The notes under the pieces were generated by a model. That model saw only the letters and a program-made list of their open reading frames with translations. It was not told the DNA's origin and searched no databases. A stretch of DNA of 20,463 bases from a virus. The position numbers and the translations under genes were made by a program. The DNA lies in IMG/VR virus record IMGVR_UViG_3300010232_000025, one strand, 5' to 3'. Shown one piece after another: positions 1 to 15,859 of this stretch. How positions within the stretch are numbered: the stretch's first letter is position 1; every line of letters starts with the position of its first letter.

Positions 1-79
1 CGGGTGGGGGCGAACGATTAGGTGAGGATTACGGGCGTTCGAGGGGGTCGTTCGACGGGCTGGACGAATGGCGACGGAG

Positions 80-163
80 TGGGCGGGGCGGGATTTGAAC
101 CCGCGGTTCCCTACGGAAAGAGGTCTTAAGCCTCCCGCGTTTTCCGGGCTTTGCTACCCGCCC
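80..163 (-). tRNA. trnL: tRNA-Leu, anticodon UAA (class II, no encoded CCA)
   Basis: Minus strand GGGCGGG-TA-GCAAAGCCCGGAAAACGC-G-GGAGG-CTTAAGA-CCTCT-TTCCGTAGGGAA-CC-GCGGG-TTCAAAT-CCCGC-CCCGCCC-A. Shows a 7-bp acceptor stem, anticodon TAA at 128-126, a long variable arm, a TTCAAAT T-loop and discriminator A. The D-stem is weak (A12.C23 mismatch). Confidence 0.95.
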
Positions 164-494: not shown

Positions 495-790
495 TACAGG
501 TCGGGGACCTGAACGGGCCGCTGGACCGCCTCGCGGACGACGGTCGGGATATGGGTCACGTCGAACCACTCCTCTCCCTCGCCGCCGACCTCCTCGACGG
601 TCGAGAGGTCCACAGCGGTAAGCGCCTCGCCCCTGTGGGTCGTCTCGTCCTCCGGGAGGGCTGAACTCGGACGGAGACGCATGCGGAACGTTTCGCCCGC
701 CGCTTCGTAGTAGACGGAGAGAGTTGAGATCCCGTCCGCCTCGCCGCGAACCTGTAGGACCGCCGCGGAGTCCTTAGCGGTTGAGGACAT
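494..790 (-). CDS. Hypothetical protein (98 aa)
   Basis: Acidic ORF with halophile-type codon usage; its ATG abuts the TAA of the upstream ORF. Confidence 0.8.
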   Translation of the reverse strand: MSSTAKDSAAVLQVRGEADGISTLSVYYEAAGETFRMRLRPSSALPEDETTHRGEALTAVDLSTVEEVGGEGEEWFDVTHIPTVVREAVQRPVQVPDL

Positions 791-1183
791 TTACGCGCCC
801 TCCTCGTCGTCGTCGTTCTCGCGGATGTTCTGACGCGCCTCGTCCGCCTCGTCGGAGTTGAGGTAGCCCTCCTCCTCCGCCCGGTTGATAGTTTCGAGGT
901 TCGCCTGTGCGTGTCCGGAGAGGTCCGTCGTCTCGCCGTCGCGGAGGGAGGCGGGTTCCGGGTTCCACTCGTCCTCGTCGTCCGCGTCGTCCTCCTCCTC
1001 GTCGCCGCCGTCGGGCCACAGGTCCGGGGGCGTTCCCGTGTCGCCGGGTCCAGCCCATACGCGGACCGCGGGTTCGTTCTGTTCGCGGTTGAGTTCCCGC
1101 TGTCGTTCACTCTCCGCCGCGAGGCGTTCCCCGCGGAGGCGTTCCTGTTCCTCGTCGTCGCGGTCGTCGGTGTTCTGTCGCAT
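791..1183 (-). CDS. Highly acidic hypothetical protein (130 aa)
   Basis: Asp/Glu-rich ORF starting directly after conserved leader copy 1. Confidence 0.8.
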   Translation of the reverse strand: MRQNTDDRDDEEQERLRGERLAAESERQRELNREQNEPAVRVWAGPGDTGTPPDLWPDGGDEEEDDADDEDEWNPEPASLRDGETTDLSGHAQANLETINRAEEEGYLNSDEADEARQNIRENDDDEEGA

Positions 1184-1271
1184 AGCGTGGGTGGATATCG
1201 GGATCCTCCTACAGTCCCGCCCGCCCGGACGACCGTCGTCCGACCGGGTTACGGGCTACGGGAGGGTCGGG
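1184..1271 (-). repeat. Conserved structured leader element, copy 1
   Basis: Minus strand CCCGACCCTCCCGTAGCCCGTAACCCGGTCGGACGACGGTCGTCCGGGCGGGCGGGACTGTAGGAGGATCCCGATATCCACCCACGCT-ATG. Closely similar to 2871-2954 and partly to 4180-4250. Confidence 0.9.
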
Positions 1272-1724
1272 CTACTCCGTCCGGGCGGAGTCCTGAAAGA
1301 GGACTGTCCCCTCGTTGAAATTGACCTCCGCGACCTCGAACCCGTAGCGGTCCGCGACCTCGAACACTCGTCCGGAGAGGCGTCCGTTCTCGAACTCCGG
1401 GGAGAGGATAGCGCCCGTGTCCCCGACCTTAACGACCTTCGGGGTTCCGATTTGTTCAGCGTCGCGGACGGACGCGACGAACTCCCGGACCCGCGAGGAA
1501 ATGGATAGGACCTCCGCCCACTCTCCGAGAGGGTCGAGGTAGTCCAGCGTGTAGGACTGTTCCTCTCGCGCCCCGTCGAACGCGAGGGTGAGGACCGTCT
1601 CCCCGTCCACGTCCTCCGTCTCAACGACCTCGCCCACTCGACCCGCGAACGAGGCGTCCGCGTCCGAGACGTAGTAGTGGTCCGCGACCTGTTCCGCGTT
1701 CATGGCGTCGGTGTTCTGTGCCAT
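1272..1724 (-). CDS. Hypothetical protein (150 aa)
   Basis: Acidic ORF; leaderless ATG 25 nt after a promoter-family motif. Confidence 0.85.
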   Translation of the reverse strand: MAQNTDAMNAEQVADHYYVSDADASFAGRVGEVVETEDVDGETVLTLAFDGAREEQSYTLDYLDPLGEWAEVLSISSRVREFVASVRDAEQIGTPKVVKVGDTGAILSPEFENGRLSGRVFEVADRYGFEVAEVNFNEGTVLFQDSARTE

Positions 1725-1745
1725 ACTCTATTATTGTCGTGGGGG

Positions 1746-1798
1746 ATAATAAAAGTATCGGGGGCTAACGGAGAATAGTCCAGAAAGAACGCCCGGGA
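1746..1798 (-). promoter_or_regulatory. Terminator-promoter junction; promoter-family copy (20-mer at 1749-1768)
   Basis: Minus strand TTCTTTCTGGACTATTCTCCG-TTAGCCCCCGATACTTTTAT, immediately after the previous TAA. Confidence 0.8.
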
Positions 1799-2080
1799 TT
1801 AGTCCCGGTCGTCCGGCATGTCCAGCCCGTAGCGTTCCGCCTCGGAGGGCGTCGGGTCCTCTTTCACGTCGTCCCACGTCCGCGAGGGTTCCTGTTTTCG
1901 TTCCGCGAGGTCCAGCGCGTTGAGTTCGGACTCCGGACAGTCGTCGGCGTGGTCCTCCTCCGCCTCCTCGCCCTCGGACGGGATTAGGTGTCCGCATGCT
2001 GGACACTCCGGCGGATCCGGGGCGTTCCACGGGGCGTTAGGGTCGCCCGCGGAGGTCCCCGGCGGGTAGTTCCCGCCCAT
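1799..2080 (-). CDS. Small CPxCG Zn-finger protein (93 aa)
   Basis: Start re-called at ATG 2080 (MGGNYPPG...), coupled to the stop at 2082. Contains CPACG...H...C and an N-terminal YPPG...DPNAPWN segment. Confidence 0.75.
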   Translation of the reverse strand: MGGNYPPGTSAGDPNAPWNAPDPPECPACGHLIPSEGEEAEEDHADDCPESELNALDLAERKQEPSRTWDDVKEDPTPSEAERYGLDMPDDRD

Positions 2081-2081
2081 G

Positions 2082-2870
2082 CTACCACTCCGGACCCTCG
2101 TCCGGGAGGAGATCCCGCGGGACTCCGACGTAGTGTTTCTCCGCGACGCGAGGCGGGTCCCGGTCACTCCCGACCGTCTCCCCCGCGAGGACCGCGACTC
2201 CGTAGCGGGACAGAACGTCCGCGTAGGGCGTCCGGGGGCGTTCGAGAGTGTGGTCCCACGGGTTCGAGTCCGTGAAAATGACCTCGACGTTCGGAGGGTT
2301 CTGTTCGCCTCGACGGGCTGGACCGTAGCGCCCCTCGTCGTATAGGTTTAGGTCCCGGACGCCTCCGAGGGCGCGGAGGTCGTCGTAGACCTCAACAGCG
2401 CGTTCCCGCGCCTCCTCCCACGACATGACTCCTCCGCTGTAGTCGTCGAGGACGAGATCTATAGCGGACGCGACCTCCGTCGTCTCAACGAGAGGGTAGC
2501 CCGCGTTCTCCCGGTCGCGGAGGAACCGGGCGAGGCGACGCATAGCCGCCCCCGGGTTCGTCGCCCCGTCCTCGTCGGTCGCGTCGAGGACGTTCCCCGG
2601 GATTAGGGCGTGTTCCCGCTGTCCTTCTCCCTCGAACTCCTCGTCCGACGGATCGAACGAAAGGTCTACCACGTCCTCCGTGGGGTAGAACGTCGCCCCA
2701 CACAGGGAACAGGTCGCGGAGTCGAACGTCTCCATGTCCTCCGCGGAGAGGGGGTCCGTCTCGCGGTTCACGTCCGGACCACAGTCCAGACAGAACAGCG
2801 GGGCGGTATTCCCCTCAACTACCGCGGAGTAGCCTATTGGTTCGTCGTTTGTGTCGTCGTTTCCTGTCAT
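2082..2870 (-). CDS. Hypothetical protein with N-terminal Zn finger (262 aa)
   Basis: CLDCG...CSLCG motif; acidic; begins after leader copy 2. Confidence 0.85.
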   Translation of the reverse strand: MTGNDDTNDEPIGYSAVVEGNTAPLFCLDCGPDVNRETDPLSAEDMETFDSATCSLCGATFYPTEDVVDLSFDPSDEEFEGEGQREHALIPGNVLDATDEDGATNPGAAMRRLARFLRDRENAGYPLVETTEVASAIDLVLDDYSGGVMSWEEARERAVEVYDDLRALGGVRDLNLYDEGRYGPARRGEQNPPNVEVIFTDSNPWDHTLERPRTPYADVLSRYGVAVLAGETVGSDRDPPRVAEKHYVGVPRDLLPDEGPEW

Positions 2871-2954
2871 AGTCGGGTTGATATCGGGACCCTCCTACGT
2901 CCCGCCCCGACGGACGACCGTCGTCCGACGAGGTTACGGGCGTGGGAGGGTCGC
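2871..2954 (-). repeat. Conserved structured leader element, copy 2
   Basis: Minus strand GCGACCCTCCCACGCCCGTAACCTCGTCGGACGACGGTCGTCCGTCGGGGCGGGACGTAGGAGGGTCCCGATATCAACCCGACT-ATG. Confidence 0.9.
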
Positions 2955-3662
2955 CTACTTCTTGTAGAACGACCACTTACTCGTTCGTTCACACTCGAAC
3001 CCGTAGGAGTCGGACAGGTTCTCGAACAGGAACTCCTCGAACGCCTCCCGAACCTGTAGGTCCAGCGCGGACGCGACGGAGACGGTCACTCCGAGGTCGG
3101 TCCCGAGACAGCCCGTCCCGCTGTGGTCCTCGTCTTTGAACGCGAACGACTCCGCGTTCAGCGTCCCGACGAGGGGATCCTCCTCTAACGCCTCCGCGAC
3201 GACCCGGGCGACGTGGGACGCCATGTTCGAGGAGAGGTCCCCCTCAACGGTCCAGCGGTCCGAGGGTTCGACGACCGTCGCCCGCTGGACGGACAGAACC
3301 TCGTAGCCGCTGTTATCCTCGTCGTCCTCGTCCGGGTAGTTATTGACGAGTCCGCCCGTGTGACTGTCCGCGTCGAGGACGAGGGTCGCCCGGAGACGCG
3401 GGAGGTCGCGGTAGTCGTCGGTCCGTTCGTTCCACACTCTCGACGCTTTTAGCCCGGGGAACATGCCCTCCGCCTCCTCGTCGGGGCGGTCGAGGCGTTC
3501 GAGGTCCGCCGCGTCCTCGTCGGTCCACTCTCCCTCTATCTCGTAGCGGGCGTTCCCGTAGTTCGAGAGTTCGAGTTCCACCACGTCGCCCGCGGACAGG
3601 TCCGAGGCGTCGAGGGGCTGTTCGTCGTCCGCGTCGTCGGTCGGAGTCATGTTTCGACTCAT
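2955..3662 (-). CDS. Hypothetical protein (235 aa)
   Basis: Acidic ORF; leaderless ATG 26 nt after a promoter-family motif. Confidence 0.85.
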   Translation of the reverse strand: MSRNMTPTDDADDEQPLDASDLSAGDVVELELSNYGNARYEIEGEWTDEDAADLERLDRPDEEAEGMFPGLKASRVWNERTDDYRDLPRLRATLVLDADSHTGGLVNNYPDEDDEDNSGYEVLSVQRATVVEPSDRWTVEGDLSSNMASHVARVVAEALEEDPLVGTLNAESFAFKDEDHSGTGCLGTDLGVTVSVASALDLQVREAFEEFLFENLSDSYGFECERTSKWSFYKK

Positions 3663-3685
3663 ACCCTACAATACAGCGCGGCGGG

Positions 3686-3735
3686 TTATAAAGTTACCGG
3701 AGGCTAATAGACAGTAGCCCGAAAGAATAGCCGGG
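3686..3735 (-). promoter_or_regulatory. Terminator-promoter junction; promoter-family copy (20-mer at 3688-3707)
   Basis: Minus strand GGCTATTCTTTCGGGCTACTGTCTA-TTAGCCTCCGGTAACTTTAT. Confidence 0.8.
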
Positions 3736-3744
3736 GGTCGCGTG

Positions 3745-4179
3745 TTACTCCTCGCCGGTCACGTTCCGGTAGCGCCCGGACGCGAGGCGACGGGCGAACT
3801 CGTTACCCGAGATCTCTATGTGCGGGCTGTCCTCGTTCGCGGGGAACTCCGGTTCCTCGAACTCAACCTCTAAAGCGTCCATGGGTCGAGAGTGGTCGAG
3901 GTCGGGGTTTGACCGGAACGAGAACCACCGCGCCGTTCTGAACGTGATAGTCTCGCCCCTGTGTTCGTCGTAGAACTCCATACCCTCGTAGACGTGGACC
4001 TGAACCGCGGGCGGGTCCAGCGTCTCTCCGTCGGAGACGGAGGAGACGGACATGGTAGTTCCGGACGTGTCCTCCGGAGTAGGCCACTCGTCGGGCTGTT
4101 CGTCCTCCGGGATTTGTCCGAGTTCGAGGGCGATATGCGTACTAATCGCGGTCGTCGCGTAGGGTTCGTTTCGTCTCAT
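3745..4179 (-). CDS. Hypothetical protein (144 aa)
   Basis: Start re-called at ATG 4179 (MRRNEPY...), directly after leader copy 3. The GTG extension to 4254 in the track runs through the leader. Confidence 0.8.
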   Translation of the reverse strand: MRRNEPYATTAISTHIALELGQIPEDEQPDEWPTPEDTSGTTMSVSSVSDGETLDPPAVQVHVYEGMEFYDEHRGETITFRTARWFSFRSNPDLDHSRPMDALEVEFEEPEFPANEDSPHIEISGNEFARRLASGRYRNVTGEE

Positions 4180-4250
4180 AGCGTGGGTTTGGTATCGGGA
4201 CCTCCTACGTCCCGCCTCGCCTTGTCCAGCCGCGGACGCGACGAGGCTAC
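4180..4250 (-). repeat. Conserved structured leader element, copy 3 (5' UTR, lacks the upstream anti-GGAGG strand)
   Basis: Minus strand GTAGCCTCGTCGCGTCCGCGGCTGGACAAGGCGAGGCGGGACGTAGGAGGTCCCGATACCAAACCCACGCT-ATG. Begins at the start site predicted from the promoter at 4276-4295. Confidence 0.8.
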
Positions 4251-4270
4251 ACACTACAGTAGGGCCTACG

Positions 4271-4324
4271 GGTATAAAAAGTTATCGGGGGCTAATGGGC
4301 GACAGTCCAGAAAGATAGCCCGGG
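4271..4324 (-). promoter_or_regulatory. Terminator-promoter junction; promoter-family copy (20-mer at 4276-4295)
   Basis: Minus strand CCCGGGCTATCTTTCTGGACTGTCGCCCA-TTAGCCCCCGATAACTTTTT, immediately after a TAA. Confidence 0.8.
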
Positions 4325-5374
4325 TTAGTAGTCGTTGAGGTTGATTTGTTCTCCGCTGTCCGGTTTCGACGGTTCAACGAGGTAGCGGTCGTCCGGGTCC
4401 GGGTGAGTTACCCGACCGTTCGAGGTCACGTCCTTACAGTCCTCACACAGCATTTCTTGAGTCTCCGGCATGGTTTTAGCCCGGAGTTCGGGGCTGGACA
4501 TTTTCCCGTGTCCTAACCATGAGTAATCCTGTTCTCGACCCCGGGCGAGGGCGTCGAGTTCAGGAATAGCCTCTAACGTCTCCGCGAGATCCGGGCGGAG
4601 TTCTCGAAGGACGACGAGGCGGAGACGGGCGTCGTTGTTCTCCTCGCGGTAGGTGTTCACTCGTTCCCATGCGTCCGGATAGTCCTCTTTCAGGTAGCCA
4701 TGAACGCGCCCGCGGTAAACCTGAACCTCCCACTCGTTCCGTTTGAGACGCTGGACGTGTTCGACTATCCACCGGGGCGGATCCGCGTCCTCGCCGTCGT
4801 AATGGCGTAGATCTAACTCGAACTCCCGGAGTCCGTAGGCCATACAGTAACACTCTCCCGACCTGTCTACCTGTTCGACGACGGGCGAGGCGGGGAGGTC
4901 ATGTTCTACGAGAAAGTCCTGAACGTCCTCGTCGCGGAACCCCTCTATTGGGGCCTTCCATATCCCGAACTCCCGTTCCTGAAAGTCTACGACCCGCCCC
5001 ATGCGGGCGTCCGACTCATGTCTCCGGACCCCGGTATAGAGGTATGGCTTTCCGTCGTACTTACGACAGAACCGCTTAATTGGGTGTTCTTTCAGATACC
5101 GGTAATACCATGAGTGTTTACTCGGGCCGGGGAACCCGTACTTTTTCGCGTACCACCAGAACGATTTGCGCGGGCGGAGTTTAACGAGATACCACCCGTA
5201 TTTCTGTGCGACCGCCTCGACGAATCTCTCGTTTAGAGGGATACCTGTCCCGGTGTCTACGTGAACCACCGTGTCCGCGTTCTCGTCTATCTCCATGGTT
5301 TTGAACGTTGAGACGAGACTATCGTAGCCGCCGGAGAACAGCGCCGCGCCTTGTGATTTTGCGTGTCTTGTCAT
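4325..5374 (-). CDS. PAPS-reductase-family (PP-loop, adenine nucleotide alpha-hydrolase) protein (349 aa)
   Basis: Motifs FSGGYDS, VHVDTG, FPGP, YTGVRRHESDAR and RSGECYC. Start re-called at ATG 5374, 4 nt after the MTase stop. Confidence 0.85.
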   Translation of the reverse strand: MTRHAKSQGAALFSGGYDSLVSTFKTMEIDENADTVVHVDTGTGIPLNERFVEAVAQKYGWYLVKLRPRKSFWWYAKKYGFPGPSKHSWYYRYLKEHPIKRFCRKYDGKPYLYTGVRRHESDARMGRVVDFQEREFGIWKAPIEGFRDEDVQDFLVEHDLPASPVVEQVDRSGECYCMAYGLREFELDLRHYDGEDADPPRWIVEHVQRLKRNEWEVQVYRGRVHGYLKEDYPDAWERVNTYREENNDARLRLVVLRELRPDLAETLEAIPELDALARGREQDYSWLGHGKMSSPELRAKTMPETQEMLCEDCKDVTSNGRVTHPDPDDRYLVEPSKPDSGEQINLNDY

Positions 5375-10631: not shown

Positions 10632-11917
10632 AGTAGCCCCATGTCGTCGAGGAGGGCGCGAACGAGGGCGTCACCCGAGGGCTGTCCGCCCGGGTGGACG
10701 GACTCCTCGGACGCCCGTTTCTGTAGGGCGTTGTAGGACTCTCGCCGGAGGTTAGACTCGACGACAGCCGCGTTTATGCGGGTGAAATTGTCCCACCCAC
10801 AGCCGGGACAGAACGTTACCGTGTCGCCGTCCTCCGTCTCCTCCGTGTCGGTCCCGGTTCCACACTCCGGACACTCGTCCGGGCGCGGGATCTCAACGAA
10901 CTCAACGTCCGCGAACTTGTCGGGCTGGACGACCGTCTCGTTCTCCGCGAACTCTCGAATCTCGTCCTCCGCCGCGTCCAGTTGGTCGCGGATCTCGTCC
11001 TCGTCGAGGTTCGACTCCTCCGGGACCTGTTCCACGTCGCGCCCGGGTTTGTCCGAGGCTTGAACACTCACAGGTTCGCTTTCGGCGTCGCCGTTTCCGA
11101 ACCCCTCGTCGTCGTTTAGCGTCGTCGCCCGGGACCCGTCGGCGTGGATTTGGTCCCCGATATGAACGAGGTCCATGTCCTCGCGTCCCGCCGCCTGTTC
11201 CTGTGCCCACGCCGGGAACCGTCCTTTCTCGTCCTCCGTGTAAACCGTTCTATGGAGGTAGACGTAGCCGATAATCCCGGGTTTCCGTTCCTCGGACTCC
11301 TCGTAGTAGACCGCGTTCGGGTGGACGAGGAACAGCCGGGTCCGCCCGGGTTCGACCCGGGGCGGTTCTTGTGACTCCGAGACGGGGATAGCCTTCGAGA
11401 GTCCCTGTTCACGGACCTCCTCAACGAACCCCTCCGGAGTGTCGTAGTAGGACTTTCCCACTAACATGAACAGGTCCCGCGTTTGGAATTGGGGGACCTC
11501 GCCCGCGTGTTCGAGTCCGTGGGCGTCGCCGGTCGTCCGGGAGATATGCCGCCATATCTCCCCGGTCGGGTCCGTTGAGAACCCGCCCTCGGACGAGATC
11601 CCGTCCAGAACGCCGCGGAGTTCGCTTGTTTCCTCGTCGCCTACGTCGTCCTCAACGCCGGAGGGACGAATCCACTCCCCGACTGTCCCCGGAACGTTAT
11701 CGGGGCCGGTAACGGCTAACTCAAACTCAACGCCGGGGAAATACTCGTAGCCCCGGAACTTACTCCGTTCGAGGTAGGGAACCGCCGGGTCGAACTCAAC
11801 GAACGGGGGGAGAGTTCCGTCTCCGGACCGGGGCGGACTCCGTAGGTATGCTTTGCTGTGTTTGAGGAACCCACAGCCGCGTTCCTCGTTTCGTACTGTC
11901 TCGCGTTCCTTTGTCAT
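10628..11917 (-). CDS. Multidomain hypothetical protein: ERGCG-type phage domain, acidic linker, Zn ribbon, C-terminal HeH/Rho-N-like helix pair (429 aa)
   Basis: ERGCGFLK...VGKSYY...LFLVHP...PGIIG; CPECG...CPGCG; YNALQKRAS...GDALVRAL. SD-like GGAGG 11 nt upstream. Confidence 0.85.
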   Translation of the reverse strand: MTKERETVRNEERGCGFLKHSKAYLRSPPRSGDGTLPPFVEFDPAVPYLERSKFRGYEYFPGVEFELAVTGPDNVPGTVGEWIRPSGVEDDVGDEETSELRGVLDGISSEGGFSTDPTGEIWRHISRTTGDAHGLEHAGEVPQFQTRDLFMLVGKSYYDTPEGFVEEVREQGLSKAIPVSESQEPPRVEPGRTRLFLVHPNAVYYEESEERKPGIIGYVYLHRTVYTEDEKGRFPAWAQEQAAGREDMDLVHIGDQIHADGSRATTLNDDEGFGNGDAESEPVSVQASDKPGRDVEQVPEESNLDEDEIRDQLDAAEDEIREFAENETVVQPDKFADVEFVEIPRPDECPECGTGTDTEETEDGDTVTFCPGCGWDNFTRINAAVVESNLRRESYNALQKRASEESVHPGGQPSGDALVRALLDDMGLL

Positions 11918-11967
11918 AGCGCGTAGTCCTCCGTGTTACCGCCTGTCCGCCGCCCTCGGAGGGGCGA

Positions 11968-12040
11968 ACGGATAGGGCGTCTATCCGTTTTGTATGTGAC
12001 TGATATAAAGTTACCGGAGATTAATGGAGAGTAGCCAAAC
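11968..12040 (-). promoter_or_regulatory. Promoter-family copy (20-mer at 12005-12024) with an 8-bp inverted repeat over the predicted start site
   Basis: Minus strand TTAATCTCCGGTAACTTTAT. ACGGATAG-GGCGT-CTATCCGT at 11968-11988 spans the predicted start near 11979. Confidence 0.75.
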
Positions 12041-14965: not shown

Positions 14966-15859
14966 CTACCGGTCCGTGTTCTCGCGGATAGCCTTTACGC
15001 GACGGTTCACGGTTACTTTGTGGACGCCGATAGCCGCCGCCGCGTCGCCCTGTGAGAGGTCCATGCGGTTCTCGTCCGCGGCTATCCAGTAGACGCCCGC
15101 GGCTATCGGTTCCGCGGACTTTCCGCGGGTCCACGCCTGTCCCGCGACCTCGGAGGCGAGGTCCAGCGCGTCCGACTCGACGACGCCGGGGAACACTACC
15201 TCCGCGTGGATCTCCTCGACCGCCTCGCGGAGTTCGTCCTCCGCGTTCTCCGCGGTGAGTTTCCCGGAGTCGTCCGTGTCCGCGTCCCGGAGGGAGAGAA
15301 CCTGTTTGTAGGCTTTCCGGATAGAGGTCCGGGAGACGCCGAACGCCTCAAAGTCCGCCTGTGTGAGGGTGTCGCCCGTGAGTTGGGCGGACGCATAGAG
15401 GACGAGGGACGCCGCGACCGCGTGGGTCCGGTTCGTGAACAGTCCCGCCTCCGTCCCCTCGCGGAGGAGTTCGCGGGCTGTCTCAACCGACTCGTTCGAG
15501 GCGTTGAGTTCGCGTCCGAACCGCTGGACGAACGCCTCTATCATGTCGTAGACCTCCTCCTCGTCCGCGGGTAGCGGGTTGATATCCAGCGCCTCAACGA
15601 CGCGCCGAAACTCCCGGGAGACAGCCGTCTCGGAGACGCCCGCCGCCTCCGCGACCTCGCCCGCGGTCACGGGTTCGCGTTCGTCTCTCGCCGCCGCGTA
15701 GACGACCGCAGGGTAGGTCCTCGCGTCCGCCGGGATTTGGTAGTCCTCGTTTTCGAGGCGTTCGAGGATCATTTCCGCGTAGTTCCCGACCCGTTCAGGT
15801 AGCCCGACAGCCCGGGCTATCTCAACGGGATCCTTCCGTCGTTCCGAGAGTGTGGACAT
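14966..15859 (-). CDS. tfb: TFB/TFIIB-like protein with three cyclin-fold repeats and no Zn ribbon (297 aa)
   Basis: Three repeats: PAVVYAAAR..EPVTAGEVAEAAGVSETAVSREFRRV; AASLVLYASA..TLTQADFEAFGVSRTSIRKAYKQV; GKSAEPIAAGVYWIAA..LSQGDAAAAIGVHKVTVNRRVKAI. No CxxC at the N-terminus. Confidence 0.85.
   Translation of the reverse strand: MSTLSERRKDPVEIARAVGLPERVGNYAEMILERLENEDYQIPADARTYPAVVYAAARDEREPVTAGEVAEAAGVSETAVSREFRRVVEALDINPLPADEEEVYDMIEAFVQRFGRELNASNESVETARELLREGTEAGLFTNRTHAVAASLVLYASAQLTGDTLTQADFEAFGVSRTSIRKAYKQVLSLRDADTDDSGKLTAENAEDELREAVEEIHAEVVFPGVVESDALDLASEVAGQAWTRGKSAEPIAAGVYWIAADENRMDLSQGDAAAAIGVHKVTVNRRVKAIRENTDR

Follow-up and report, generated by a model that had tools for sequence, protein, structure and literature searches.

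A covarying intercistronic hairpin enclosing an AGGAGG motif at gene junctions of haloarchaeal tailed viruses

The 20,463-nt stretch of viral DNA analyzed here (the window) contains three copies of a structured element in a region where all genes lie on the minus strand. The features are given below; the masking strand is the pyrimidine strand just past an upstream stop codon that pairs with a GGAGG-containing strand.

1271 to 1184, minus strand: copy 1, between the stop TAG (1274-1272) and the ATG (1183-1181)
1272..1724, minus strand: upstream cistron of copy 1, a leaderless 150-aa gene with its promoter at about 1750; its stop is 3 nt before the masking strand
1202..1268, minus strand: long hairpin of copy 1 (sequence, MFE fold, and two covariance model searches, 77 and 72 bits)
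1181..1201, minus strand: unpaired C/A-rich tail of copy 1 and the ATG of a 130-aa gene (791-1183) (sequence, fold, accessibility model)
2954 to 2871, minus strand: copy 2, between the stop TAG (2957-2955) and the ATG (2870-2868)
2955..3662, minus strand: upstream cistron of copy 2, a leaderless 235-aa gene with its promoter at about 3690; its stop is 2 nt before the masking strand
2886..2955, minus strand: long hairpin of copy 2 (MFE fold; two covariance model searches, 81 and 97 bits)
2868..2885, minus strand: unpaired tail of copy 2 and the ATG of a 262-aa gene (2082-2870) (sequence, fold)
4250 to 4180, minus strand: copy 3, ahead of the ATG 4179-4177
4177..4250, minus strand: copy 3 as a truncated element predicted to serve as a 5′ UTR (sequence, fold, covariance model, accessibility model)
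4271..4324, minus strand: promoter cassette before copy 3, with a T-rich putative terminator, a conserved upstream block, and a TATA box at 4280-4273 (repeat families D12/D13, sequence)

All three copies share the layout described in the original prediction: GTA(A/G)CC, a variable hairpin (hairpin 1), C, GGGAC, GTAGGAGG, TCCC, GATA, ACCC, (A/G)CT, and ATG. The core pattern GTAGGAGGN{0,2}TCCCGATA occurs three times in the window against 0.00 expected from 100 shuffles, and a covariance model run on the window matched exactly copies 1, 2, and 3 at 63-81 bits, the next match scoring 11 bits. In the MFE fold of copy 1, the outer strand GACCCUCC (1268-1261) is paired with GGAGGAUC, and GCCCG with CGGGA; the UAA bulge lies within GUAACC (1252-1247), the cap hairpin, which is variable, occupies 1248-1220, and GUAGGAGG lies at 1212-1205. 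Copy 2 folds at −51.1 kcal/mol (z −3.78), with equally good folding in 0 of 200 shuffles; there all 8 nt of GACCCUCC (2952-2945) are paired with GGAGGGUC, the cap hairpin lies at 2933-2905, and GGGAC (2903-2899) is followed by GUAGGAGG (2898-2891). Copy 3 has its cap hairpin at 4247-4214, hairpin 2 (GGGAC/GUCCC) at 4213-4197, GUAGGAGG at 4208-4201, and a tail reaching the ATG (4179-4177) of a 144-aa gene; it has no masking strand and begins with GUAGCC at the predicted transcript start. The anti-strand GACCCTCC had been placed 3-4 nt past the upstream stop, which is right for copy 1 (1268-1261, 3 nt) but not for copy 2 (2952-2945, 2 nt). Its reported complementarity, 8/8 to GGAGGGTC in copy 2 and 7/8 to GGAGGATC in copy 1 (one A·C mismatch), was reproduced, and the distance from GGAGG to ATG, given earlier as 20-21 nt, measures 21, 20, and 21 nt in copies 1, 2, and 3.

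Copies were drawn from the window, IMG/VR contigs, and metagenome/Logan contigs, and relatives were fetched with 13 homologues of the 235-aa gene (2955..3662). This yielded 25 distinct copies in about 12 related contigs of uncultured haloarchaeal tailed viruses, mostly from halite and other hypersaline metagenomes; no copy was found in the sequenced prokaryote genomes searched. All copies terminate exactly at an ATG used as a start by independent gene calls, and all are oriented as the genes and carry the conserved unpaired tail. At least seven different upstream genes precede the element, and the gene behind it varies between otherwise syntenic genomes, being 195, 198, 263, 129, or 110 aa long after the gene-D homologue. 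Hairpin 1 occurs in at least 13 different sequences, all of which pair, and its variants are common to copies within one genome, which indicates gene conversion. Searching Rfam returned no family, only spurious miRNA and mraW matches (20-32 bits against gathering thresholds of 50-90), and literature searches gave nothing matching either, in agreement with the claim that the element has no described counterpart.

The MFE structure of the intergenic copies is a single long imperfect hairpin of ∼27 bp over about 70-85 nt, extending from the upstream stop to ∼18 nt before the next AUG. Within it the post-stop strand is paired with CGGGAC..GGAGGGUC, followed by the UAA bulge and by hairpin 1 as the cap. 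The two-hairpin layout proposed earlier thus exists in the sequence but not as separate hairpins in these folds, where the anti-strand is paired with the GGAGG strand; this masking helix appears in almost all unconstrained MFE folds of the intergenic copies, the clear exception being L047. Pairing in the long hairpin reaches 84.9% of cells, compared with 36-54% when the partner strand is slid. Double-sided changes were counted in 16 of 29 pairs, with both the cap and the outer helix covarying, and the covariation score of 0.315 (0.140 in shuffled alignments) was matched by 0 of 500 shuffles, the alignment behind these counts having itself been fitted to the structure. For the outer (masking) helix alone, double changes occur in 8 of 17 pairs, a value reached by 3 of 500 shuffles. 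In an alignment-free test, cognate 5′ and 3′ strands gave −24.35 kcal/mol against −22.0 ± 0.45 kcal/mol for permuted partners (0 of 20000). Compensatory changes keep the masking pairs in L077 (GGUCCUCC:GGAGGACC), L085 (CCCUCG:CGAGGG), and L019 (GACCUC:GAGGUC), which bears out the suggested pairing of the post-stop strand with the GGAGG strand; that hairpin 1 pairs despite sequence change is borne out in turn by its variants and by covariation of the cap. The broader claim of a conserved, covarying structure ahead of start codons is supported by the 25 copies and by the shuffle and alignment-free tests together.

Hairpin 2 had been cast as the alternative fold of a switch, a role that the alignment does not support: GGGAC/GUCCC shows zero covariation, its seven variant cells all disrupt pairing, and the hairpin is weakened in 5 of 22 copies. 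At the DNA level, GGGAC/GTCCC is a perfect 5-N8-5 inverted repeat. The conserved 3′ strand, GGCGGGAC-GUAGGAGGGUCCC, is nearly invariant and contains AGGAGG, in contrast to the freely drifting hairpin 1. The antisense strand folds as stably as the sense strand, and G·U pairs (38) are not much commoner than A·C (28); because both strands fold alike and the wobble asymmetry is slight, the sense-RNA reading rests on position and orientation. Two known bulged motifs were considered and rejected. The 3-nt UAA bulge, 4 bp, and 1-nt A of GGGAC form a 3-4-1 arrangement, not the 3-4-3 of the bulge-helix-bulge cut by the archaeal splicing endonuclease, and the tandem sheared G·A pairs that a Kink-turn needs after its 3-nt bulge are replaced by C-G and C-G. 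We regard the element as a well-supported new RNA structure and a candidate RNA family absent from Rfam.

AGGAGG is present in 23 of the 25 copies (AGGAGGU in copy 3) and is complementary over at least 6 nt to a 16S 3′ end of the GGAGGUGA type, a motif taken from the literature that may not be the host's (PMC3986360). Its spacing to the AUG is 16-22 nt in full copies, 10 nt occurring only in the short variant L028, and the full copies thus fall outside the 5 ± 2 nt at which functional internal SD motifs lie from the start in Haloferax volcanii (PMC3986360). SD motifs in haloarchaeal 5′ UTRs gave no initiation boost in that species (PMC3986360). The masking strand, or the base of the hairpin, begins 0-6 nt past the upstream stop in 19 of 21 intergenic copies; in L047, L085, L097, and L118, the last two being later finds, the stop lies 10-17 nt ahead of the masking strand. 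Modeling gave the GGAGG 5-mer an unpaired probability of 0.07 in free RNA; blocking 10-13 nt downstream of the stop raised this only to ∼0.4, and for the transcript of copy 3 the value was 0.75. The start codon and the preceding 12 nt are unpaired (mean P = 0.93 over the family), the AUG is open in both modeled states, and the C/A-rich 16-20 nt ahead of it are predicted to be single stranded. Since the AUG is unmasked, the hairpin need not block initiation. In L085, GGAGG has changed to CGAGG together with a compensating change in the mask, suggesting that pairing was kept rather than SD identity.

Copy 3 follows a promoter, as had been stated, with its TATA box at 4280-4273; judged from the register of the two promoters of leaderless genes, at 1750 and 3690 (repeat families D12/D13), transcription is predicted to begin with the G of GTAGCC, at about 4251/4250. 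The accompanying argument, that copy 3 has no anti-strand because it has no upstream gene, proved circular when the lost segment was recognized by comparison with L074. In this close relative, whose homologue of the 150-aa gene (1272..1724) is 61% identical, a 135-aa gene is driven by the same promoter cassette, and a complete element, anti-strand included, comes after it. Copy 3 is therefore the product of a recent deletion from GTAGCC to GTAACC that removed the 135-aa gene, and because of this origin its missing masking strand is no evidence of design. Neighboring junctions in the same operons (B-C, 790/791; E-F, 2080-2084) have abutting stop/start pairs, so the 82-90 nt spacer has been kept against general genome compaction. 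No AT-rich TATA/BRE block was found in the element, positions −30 to −21 before the ATG reading GUAGGAGG(A/G) in copies 1-3, and the promoter cassettes of the window are a separate repeat, distinct from the hairpin element. Those cassettes (about 1750, 3690, 4278, and 12010), and not the hairpin, correspond to the intergenic repeats of halovirus HF2 (PMC8707807), which likewise recur between genes of a haloarchaeal tailed virus but are AT-rich and promoter bearing, whereas the hairpin element is G+C-rich and lacks a TATA-like motif. A fourth leader in the same viruses (11917-11980 in the window) has a 5′ hairpin, and its GGAGG, which is unmasked, lies 9-12 nt from a start of similar sequence (...ACGCGCUAUG), suggesting that GGAGG serves as a ribosome site in these viruses.

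With somewhat less than even confidence, we favor the reading that the element is a leader with a masked ribosome-binding site, which ribosomes completing the upstream gene would open. It would act in cis as an mRNA leader in a small clade of haloarchaeal tailed viruses, placed between two cistrons of one transcript, in which the hairpin would hold the AGGAGG site unavailable until a ribosome at the upstream stop occupied or unwound the 5′ strand and freed it. Once released, the 3′ strand could form the small GGGAC/GUCCC hairpin, whose loop contains GUAGGAG. Use of the next AUG would thus follow upstream translation, an "RNA-unfolding" translational coupling over ∼85 nt, and the truncated copy 3 would be an unmasked, constitutively open form. 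Coupling of this kind is established at spacings of +52 to +62 nt in bacteria and phages (reviewed in PMC12548453), in elements such as the f1 gene VII-IX hairpin, E. coli rpmI-rplT (+52 nt), and MS2 coat-lysis/replicase. Like them, the halovirus element is a stable intercistronic structure that may sequester the downstream ribosome-binding region, has one strand within reach of ribosomes finishing the upstream gene, and has a spacing too long for termination-reinitiation. It differs in being archaeal viral, in masking only an SD-like AGGAGG 16-22 nt from an open AUG, and in the position of its 5′ strand, just past the stop and not within the upstream ORF. In Haloferax, coupling has so far been demonstrated only as termination-reinitiation, and this disappears at ≥22 nt (PMC10666635). 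We consider it doubtful, though worth stating, that the element is the first archaeal case of long-range (∼85 nt) ribosome-unfolding coupling, or alternatively uses a shunt-like transfer of the terminating ribosome across the hairpin to a landing tail; under both versions the distant AGGAGG would capture the post-termination ribosome and would not be a classical SD.

The main alternative, though an unlikely one, is that the element serves RNA processing and/or stability between cistrons, as do the sites cut by RNase III between T7 early genes. T7 RNase III sites are internal-loop hairpins that resemble one another and lie immediately ahead of the next ribosome site, and cutting there can unmask that site and leave protective stem-loops. 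In the haloviruses, a host or viral endonuclease would cut, for example, at the UAA bulge or across from the single bulged A in GGGAC, and the product mRNA would start with GUAACC, be protected at its 5′ end by the stem-loop of hairpin 1, and have its AGGAGG unmasked, possibly as a distant stabilizer akin to STAB-SD. With its UAA and single-A bulges, the ∼27-bp fold has the long double-stranded form, broken by an internal loop, of an RNase III-type site, and the repetition of such a hairpin (>25 bp, with UAA, 4 bp, and a single A on the opposite strand conserved) between viral early-type cistrons resembles the several internal-loop hairpins of the T7 early transcript. The primary transcript of copy 3, predicted to start at GUAGCC, is the RNA that such a cut would yield, and the deletion evidently left a viable variant; the fourth leader is built alike, with a 5′-terminal hairpin and then GGAGG. 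An AUG that is never masked, an AGGAGG too distant for a normal SD, and a 3′ strand conserved far beyond pairing needs, as for a recognized site, also accord with processing. Yet to our knowledge haloarchaea have no canonical RNase III, the bulge pattern is not the one cut by the splicing endonuclease, and processing leaves unexplained why the mask is complementary to an anti-16S sequence and why the hairpin base hugs the stop codon. The T7 sites, for their part, have no sequence relation to the element and pair no anti-SD strand with an SD, and halovirus cleavage is hypothetical. STAB-SD, the 5′ mRNA stabilizer of Bacillus thuringiensis cryIIIA, shares an SD-like GGAGG too distant for initiation near the 5′ end of a (processed) mRNA; it is bacterial, unstructured, and unmasked, whereas the halovirus AGGAGG is masked and its stabilizing role hypothetical.

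It is distinctly improbable that the element is a binding site for a viral or host protein, whether an RNA translational operator (compare the MS2 coat-protein hairpin and ribosomal-protein autoregulation) or a DNA operator or roadblock at GGGAC-N8-GTCCC. Near invariance of ∼25 nt (GGCGGGAC..GUAGGAGGGUCCCGA) from copy to copy and genome to genome, against a drifting hairpin 1, a 5-N8-5 repeat that never covaries, as is typical of palindromes read by proteins, and several virus-encoded HTH proteins (TFB-like, 14966-15859) would suit it, but the invariance is also expected of a strand that must satisfy two alternative pairings plus rRNA, a DNA operator explains neither the compensatory changes in the outer helix and hairpin 1 nor the fixed register to the ATG, and the material examined held no co-varying or co-occurring candidate binder. 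We give little credence to a DNA-level feature with no mRNA role, such as a module junction, a recombination hotspot-type sequence, or a hairpin of a ssDNA replication intermediate, acting in shuffling or priming. The varying gene behind the element in syntenic genomes, the within-genome sharing of hairpin-1 variants, the copy 3 deletion that ends inside the element, and the equal stability of both strands point that way; against it stand the uniform orientation with the genes, the precise end at the start codon, the conserved unpaired tail, and the conserved strand being an anti-16S motif. Recombination between repeats follows from repetition, and the compensatory maintenance of pairing is left unexplained. 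Plain duplication of a functionless sequence, the fallback named in the original prediction, could account for the window's three copies taken by themselves but is barely credible for 25 copies in about 12 genomes with at least 13 pairing hairpin-1 sequences and double compensatory changes in the outer helix.

As far as we know, the mapping of cis-regulatory RNA structures is poor in archaea and has hardly begun in archaeal viruses, and haloarchaeal mRNAs are mostly leaderless. Here, a covarying hairpin that masks an anti-16S motif sits exactly at the nonoverlapped gene junctions of a viral clade, a defined and compact object for asking whether RNA-unfolding coupling, distant SD contacts, or processing at double-stranded sites operates on viral polycistronic RNA in haloarchaea. 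If the coupling or shunt reading is true, haloarchaeal ribosomes would be able to exploit SD contacts and mRNA structure in a manner not seen in host genes, and the element would provide a portable intercistronic expression module for haloarchaea.

Three copies of a hairpin element of about 70 nt, c1, c2 and c3, end at minus-strand ATGs at 1183, 2870 and 4179. The leaders are present as the original prediction described: a 16-nt core occurs three times in the window where none would be expected, and a covariance model trained on six copies matched only these three there (63–81 bits; the next match scored 11 bits). The predicted anti-strand GACCCTCC starts 2–3 nt past the upstream stop and is complementary to the GGAGG strand at 8/8 and 7/8 positions, and a separation of 20–21 nt between GGAGG and the ATG was likewise confirmed.

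The window derives from an uncultured tailed virus of haloarchaea, and its minus strand carries nearly all genes. The best GenBank relatives of its PAPS-reductase-family protein are from Halorubrum tailed virus 29 and Haloferax tailed virus 1 (30–39% identity), and other products include a Dam methylase, an Hjc resolvase, and TFB-like, PCNA-like and topoisomerase-like proteins; the large terminase is encoded on related contigs. At the nucleotide level, we detected no match between the window and GenBank phages in near or distant search modes, and Pfam and PHROG searches gave no function for the genes flanking the element. DNA-type metagenome runs from halite, rock and brine share short exact words with the element region, and no RNA run was among those listed. 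The stretch at 183–444, upstream of tRNA-Leu(UAA), is G+C-rich and without a convincing ORF. Promoter cassettes at ~1750, 3690, 4278 and 12010, each with a T-rich stretch (TTCTTTCNGG) that may serve as a terminator, then a conserved block (..TTAGCCCCCGATAAC..) and then a TATA box, mark off transcription units, and from their positions the element region comprises three:

79–163, minus strand: tRNA-Leu(UAA), end of the gene block
1746–1797, 3686–3736, 4271–4324 and 12004–12036, minus strand: promoter cassettes, repeat families D12/D13
Unit, minus strand: promoter, gene A (1272–1724), element, gene B (791–1183), gene C
Unit, minus strand: promoter, gene D (2955–3662), element, gene E (2082–2870), gene F
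Unit, minus strand: promoter, element, gene G (3745–4179)
Within 788–793, minus strand: B–C junction, TAA with ATG immediately after
Within 2078–2084, minus strand: E–F junction, TAG, 1 nt, ATG

Leaderless ATGs at 1724 and 3662 lie 21–23 nt past the ends of the cassettes at 1750 and 3690. It is these cassettes, not the hairpin element, that are the counterpart of the promoter-bearing intergenic repeats of HF2. B–C and E–F are abutting stop/start pairs of the classic termination–reinitiation type, in the same operons as the long structured spacers; the element spacers, at 82–90 nt, are the exception among otherwise compact operons. Gene F is 1799–2080, not the longer GTG ORF of the ORF listing.

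Pattern scans located homologous copies in five contigs, four of them from IMG/VR and one from a metagenome. When 185,579 prokaryote genomes were scanned for the pattern, 12 matches came up, all bacterial and all due to chance, and the element was thus not seen in sequenced haloarchaeal genomes. IMG/VR scans anchored on the proteins of genes C and D gave no contigs beyond those already known. Starting from 13 homologues of the gene D protein, we reached additional contigs in ENA, JGI and Logan assemblies. On this contig set, the covariance model gave 31 strong matches, 23 of them distinct, and scans without the GGAGG requirement raised the number by two, the divergent copies L097 and L118 (L-numbers denote related uncultured virus contigs or copies). 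The closest relatives, L074, L075 and L077, have three copies apiece at the same three gene junctions, and L080 and L081 have two in the stretches examined. In all relatives, the ATG at which the element ends is also the start chosen by the gene call of the source itself, and the genes downstream vary from genome to genome. We found no matching Rfam family and no paper describing the element.

Copies inside one genome often have a hairpin-1 variant in common: copies b and c of L077 both carry GGUCCAGCGG(G/C)GACC, for example, and copies a and c of L075 both carry GGACCGCGGU(C/U)GUCC. The variants of L074, L075 and L077 are not common to positional orthologues. This distribution points to recombination and gene conversion at the element, with conversion taking place between copies.

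Unconstrained folds of the intergenic copies gave one long hairpin instead of the two separate hairpins originally proposed. At its base, in almost all intergenic copies, with L047 the clear exception, the post-stop strand or mask (GACCCUCC or variants) pairs with GGAGGGUC; above this, GCCCG pairs with CGGGA/C, followed by a conserved UAA bulge (within the predicted GUAACC) and then by hairpin 1, which is the tip of the long hairpin. We realigned 22 copies to this model (alignment A7), so that the alignment is fitted to the structure. Standard pairs occupy 84.9% of its cells, versus 36–54% with the partner column slid by 1–3, and both sides change in 16 of 29 pairs; the covariation score of 0.315 was reached by none of 500 shuffles (0.140 ± 0.013). 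Hairpin 1 keeps its pairing despite sequence change, as had been claimed: 8 of its 12 pairs covary, and it occurs in at least 13 sequence variants. For the outer helix by itself, 8 of 17 pairs covary, a count reached by 3 of 500 shuffles. Because A7 was fitted to the model, an alignment-free test was added: a copy's own 5′ and 3′ strands pair with a mean of −24.35 kcal/mol versus −22.0 ± 0.45 kcal/mol with other copies' partners, and none of 20,000 permutations matched the cognate energy. The clearest individual compensations are GGUCCUCC with GGAGGACC in L077 copy c (two changes per side), CCCUCG with CGAGGG in L085, and GACCUC with GAGGUC in L019, where a one-base shortening is matched on both strands.

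Hairpin 2 (GGGAC/GUCCC), by contrast, has zero covariation, and all seven variant cells disrupt it. RNAalifold on the 3′ part alone gave −6.4 kcal/mol with a slight covariation penalty. Where the mask is missing, as it is from copy 3, hairpin 2 is still what thermodynamics favors for the 3′ strand, but no evolutionary signal points to its importance. A GGGU:ACCC helix, possible in most copies, absent in L012 and L077c, and different from the consensus fold of the 3′ part, might conceivably bring GGAG near the AUG. A helix between GUAG and the start-region CUAU, seen in constrained folds, was rejected, as it is broken in both natural variants, L083 and L085.

In 19 of the 21 intergenic copies, the hairpin base begins 0–6 nt past the stop, and the upstream genes concerned include at least seven that are unrelated; the gap is 10–17 nt in L047, L085, L097 and L118. 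The hairpin's 3′ side stops 16–20 nt ahead of the AUG, and the C/A-rich tail and AUG have a modeled mean unpaired probability of 0.93. For the GGAGG 5-mer, the modeled probability is 0.07 in free RNA, ~0.4 with 10–13 post-stop nt blocked, and 0.75 in the copy 3 transcript. Several variants and a second leader were found:

L047:7100–7136, minus strand: extra small hairpin between stop and mask, divergent copy
L097:13345–13379, minus strand: extra small hairpin between stop and mask, divergent copy
L028:1501–1559 (IMG/VR 3300025698_000016), minus strand: short variant, intergenic, directly after a stop
Window 11915–11980, minus strand: second, different leader, before a 429-aa gene
L074:1174–1289, L075:2603–2718, L077:1843–1958 and L081:1891–2006: homologues of the second leader

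The 3′ arm of the extra hairpin in L047 overlaps the mask (GCGGAGA/UCUCCGC), and hairpin 2 consequently stays formed in the MFE fold; the extra hairpins of L047 and L097 could reflect an arrangement with three states, or simply drift. In the L028 variant, GUAACU is followed by a short, weak hairpin and GGGCGGGAACGUAGGAGGAACCCG, and the distance from GGAGG to the ATG is only 10 nt; the mask and most of hairpin 1 are missing. In the second leader, the 5′-terminal hairpin covaries, its sequence differing between genomes yet still pairing, and an unmasked GGAGG lies 9–12 nt from the AUG, with a tail (...ACGCGCUAUG) similar to that of the element.

Copy 3 was correctly described as having no upstream gene and no anti-strand, but the correlation between the two is a by-product of one deletion event. 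Gene G is 98.6% identical between the window and L074. L074 has the same promoter cassette, with ...GTGTAGCC at its end; a 135-aa gene starts there with its ATG, and after it come a complete element with masking strand (GGUUCCCUCC) and gene G. The 135-aa gene precedes the element in L074, L075 and L077 (L074:6100–6680 versus window 4177–4330), and we detected no homologue in the window, where GTAGCC continues straight into hairpin 1. Copy 3 therefore derives from a deletion with its junction between GTAGCC at the promoter end and GTAACC of the element, in which upstream gene and mask were lost together. The virus persists with this truncated copy, which is adequate as a 5′ UTR.

The element is shown to be a hairpin, conserved and covarying, in which an anti-16S motif is buried and whose register to the start codon is fixed; that its copies are duplications without function is barely conceivable. 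Wobble pairs and sense-versus-antisense energies are indecisive as to the folding strand, which we read as sense RNA because of its orientation and register to the ATG, and a DNA-level role would be surprising. We infer its mode of action. Translational coupling through RNA unfolding is quite possible and is ranked first, because the mask abuts the stop codon and is specifically complementary to the SD-like motif, and because the element stands in for the overlapped junctions otherwise used for coupling. Any coupling here would belong to the unfolding class, of which f1, MS2 and rpmI-rplT are known examples (PMC12548453); Haloferax termination–reinitiation is unable to span such a distance (PMC10666635). 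Coupling is weakened as an explanation by how far GGAGG lies from the AUG, by the AUG being open, and by the report that SD motifs in Haloferax 5′ UTRs lack function (PMC3986360).

The main rival to coupling, a processing or stability site that would resemble the T7 RNase III sites, is rather unlikely; in its favor, the primary 5′ end predicted for copy 3 coincides with the conserved bulge, the end expected from such a cut. More doubtful still is a protein operator. Recoding or readthrough was rejected, the UAA of GUAACC sharing the frame of the upstream stop only in copies with 20 nt between that stop and GUAACC, as were translational bypass (no matching take-off/landing codon pair), an internal promoter (AT-rich motif missing at promoter distance) and an intrinsic terminator (no U-run past the hairpin).

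An intercistronic hairpin masking a ribosome-binding motif is a known kind of element; what is new is its setting, in archaeal viruses, and its geometry, a distant SD-like motif with an open AUG.
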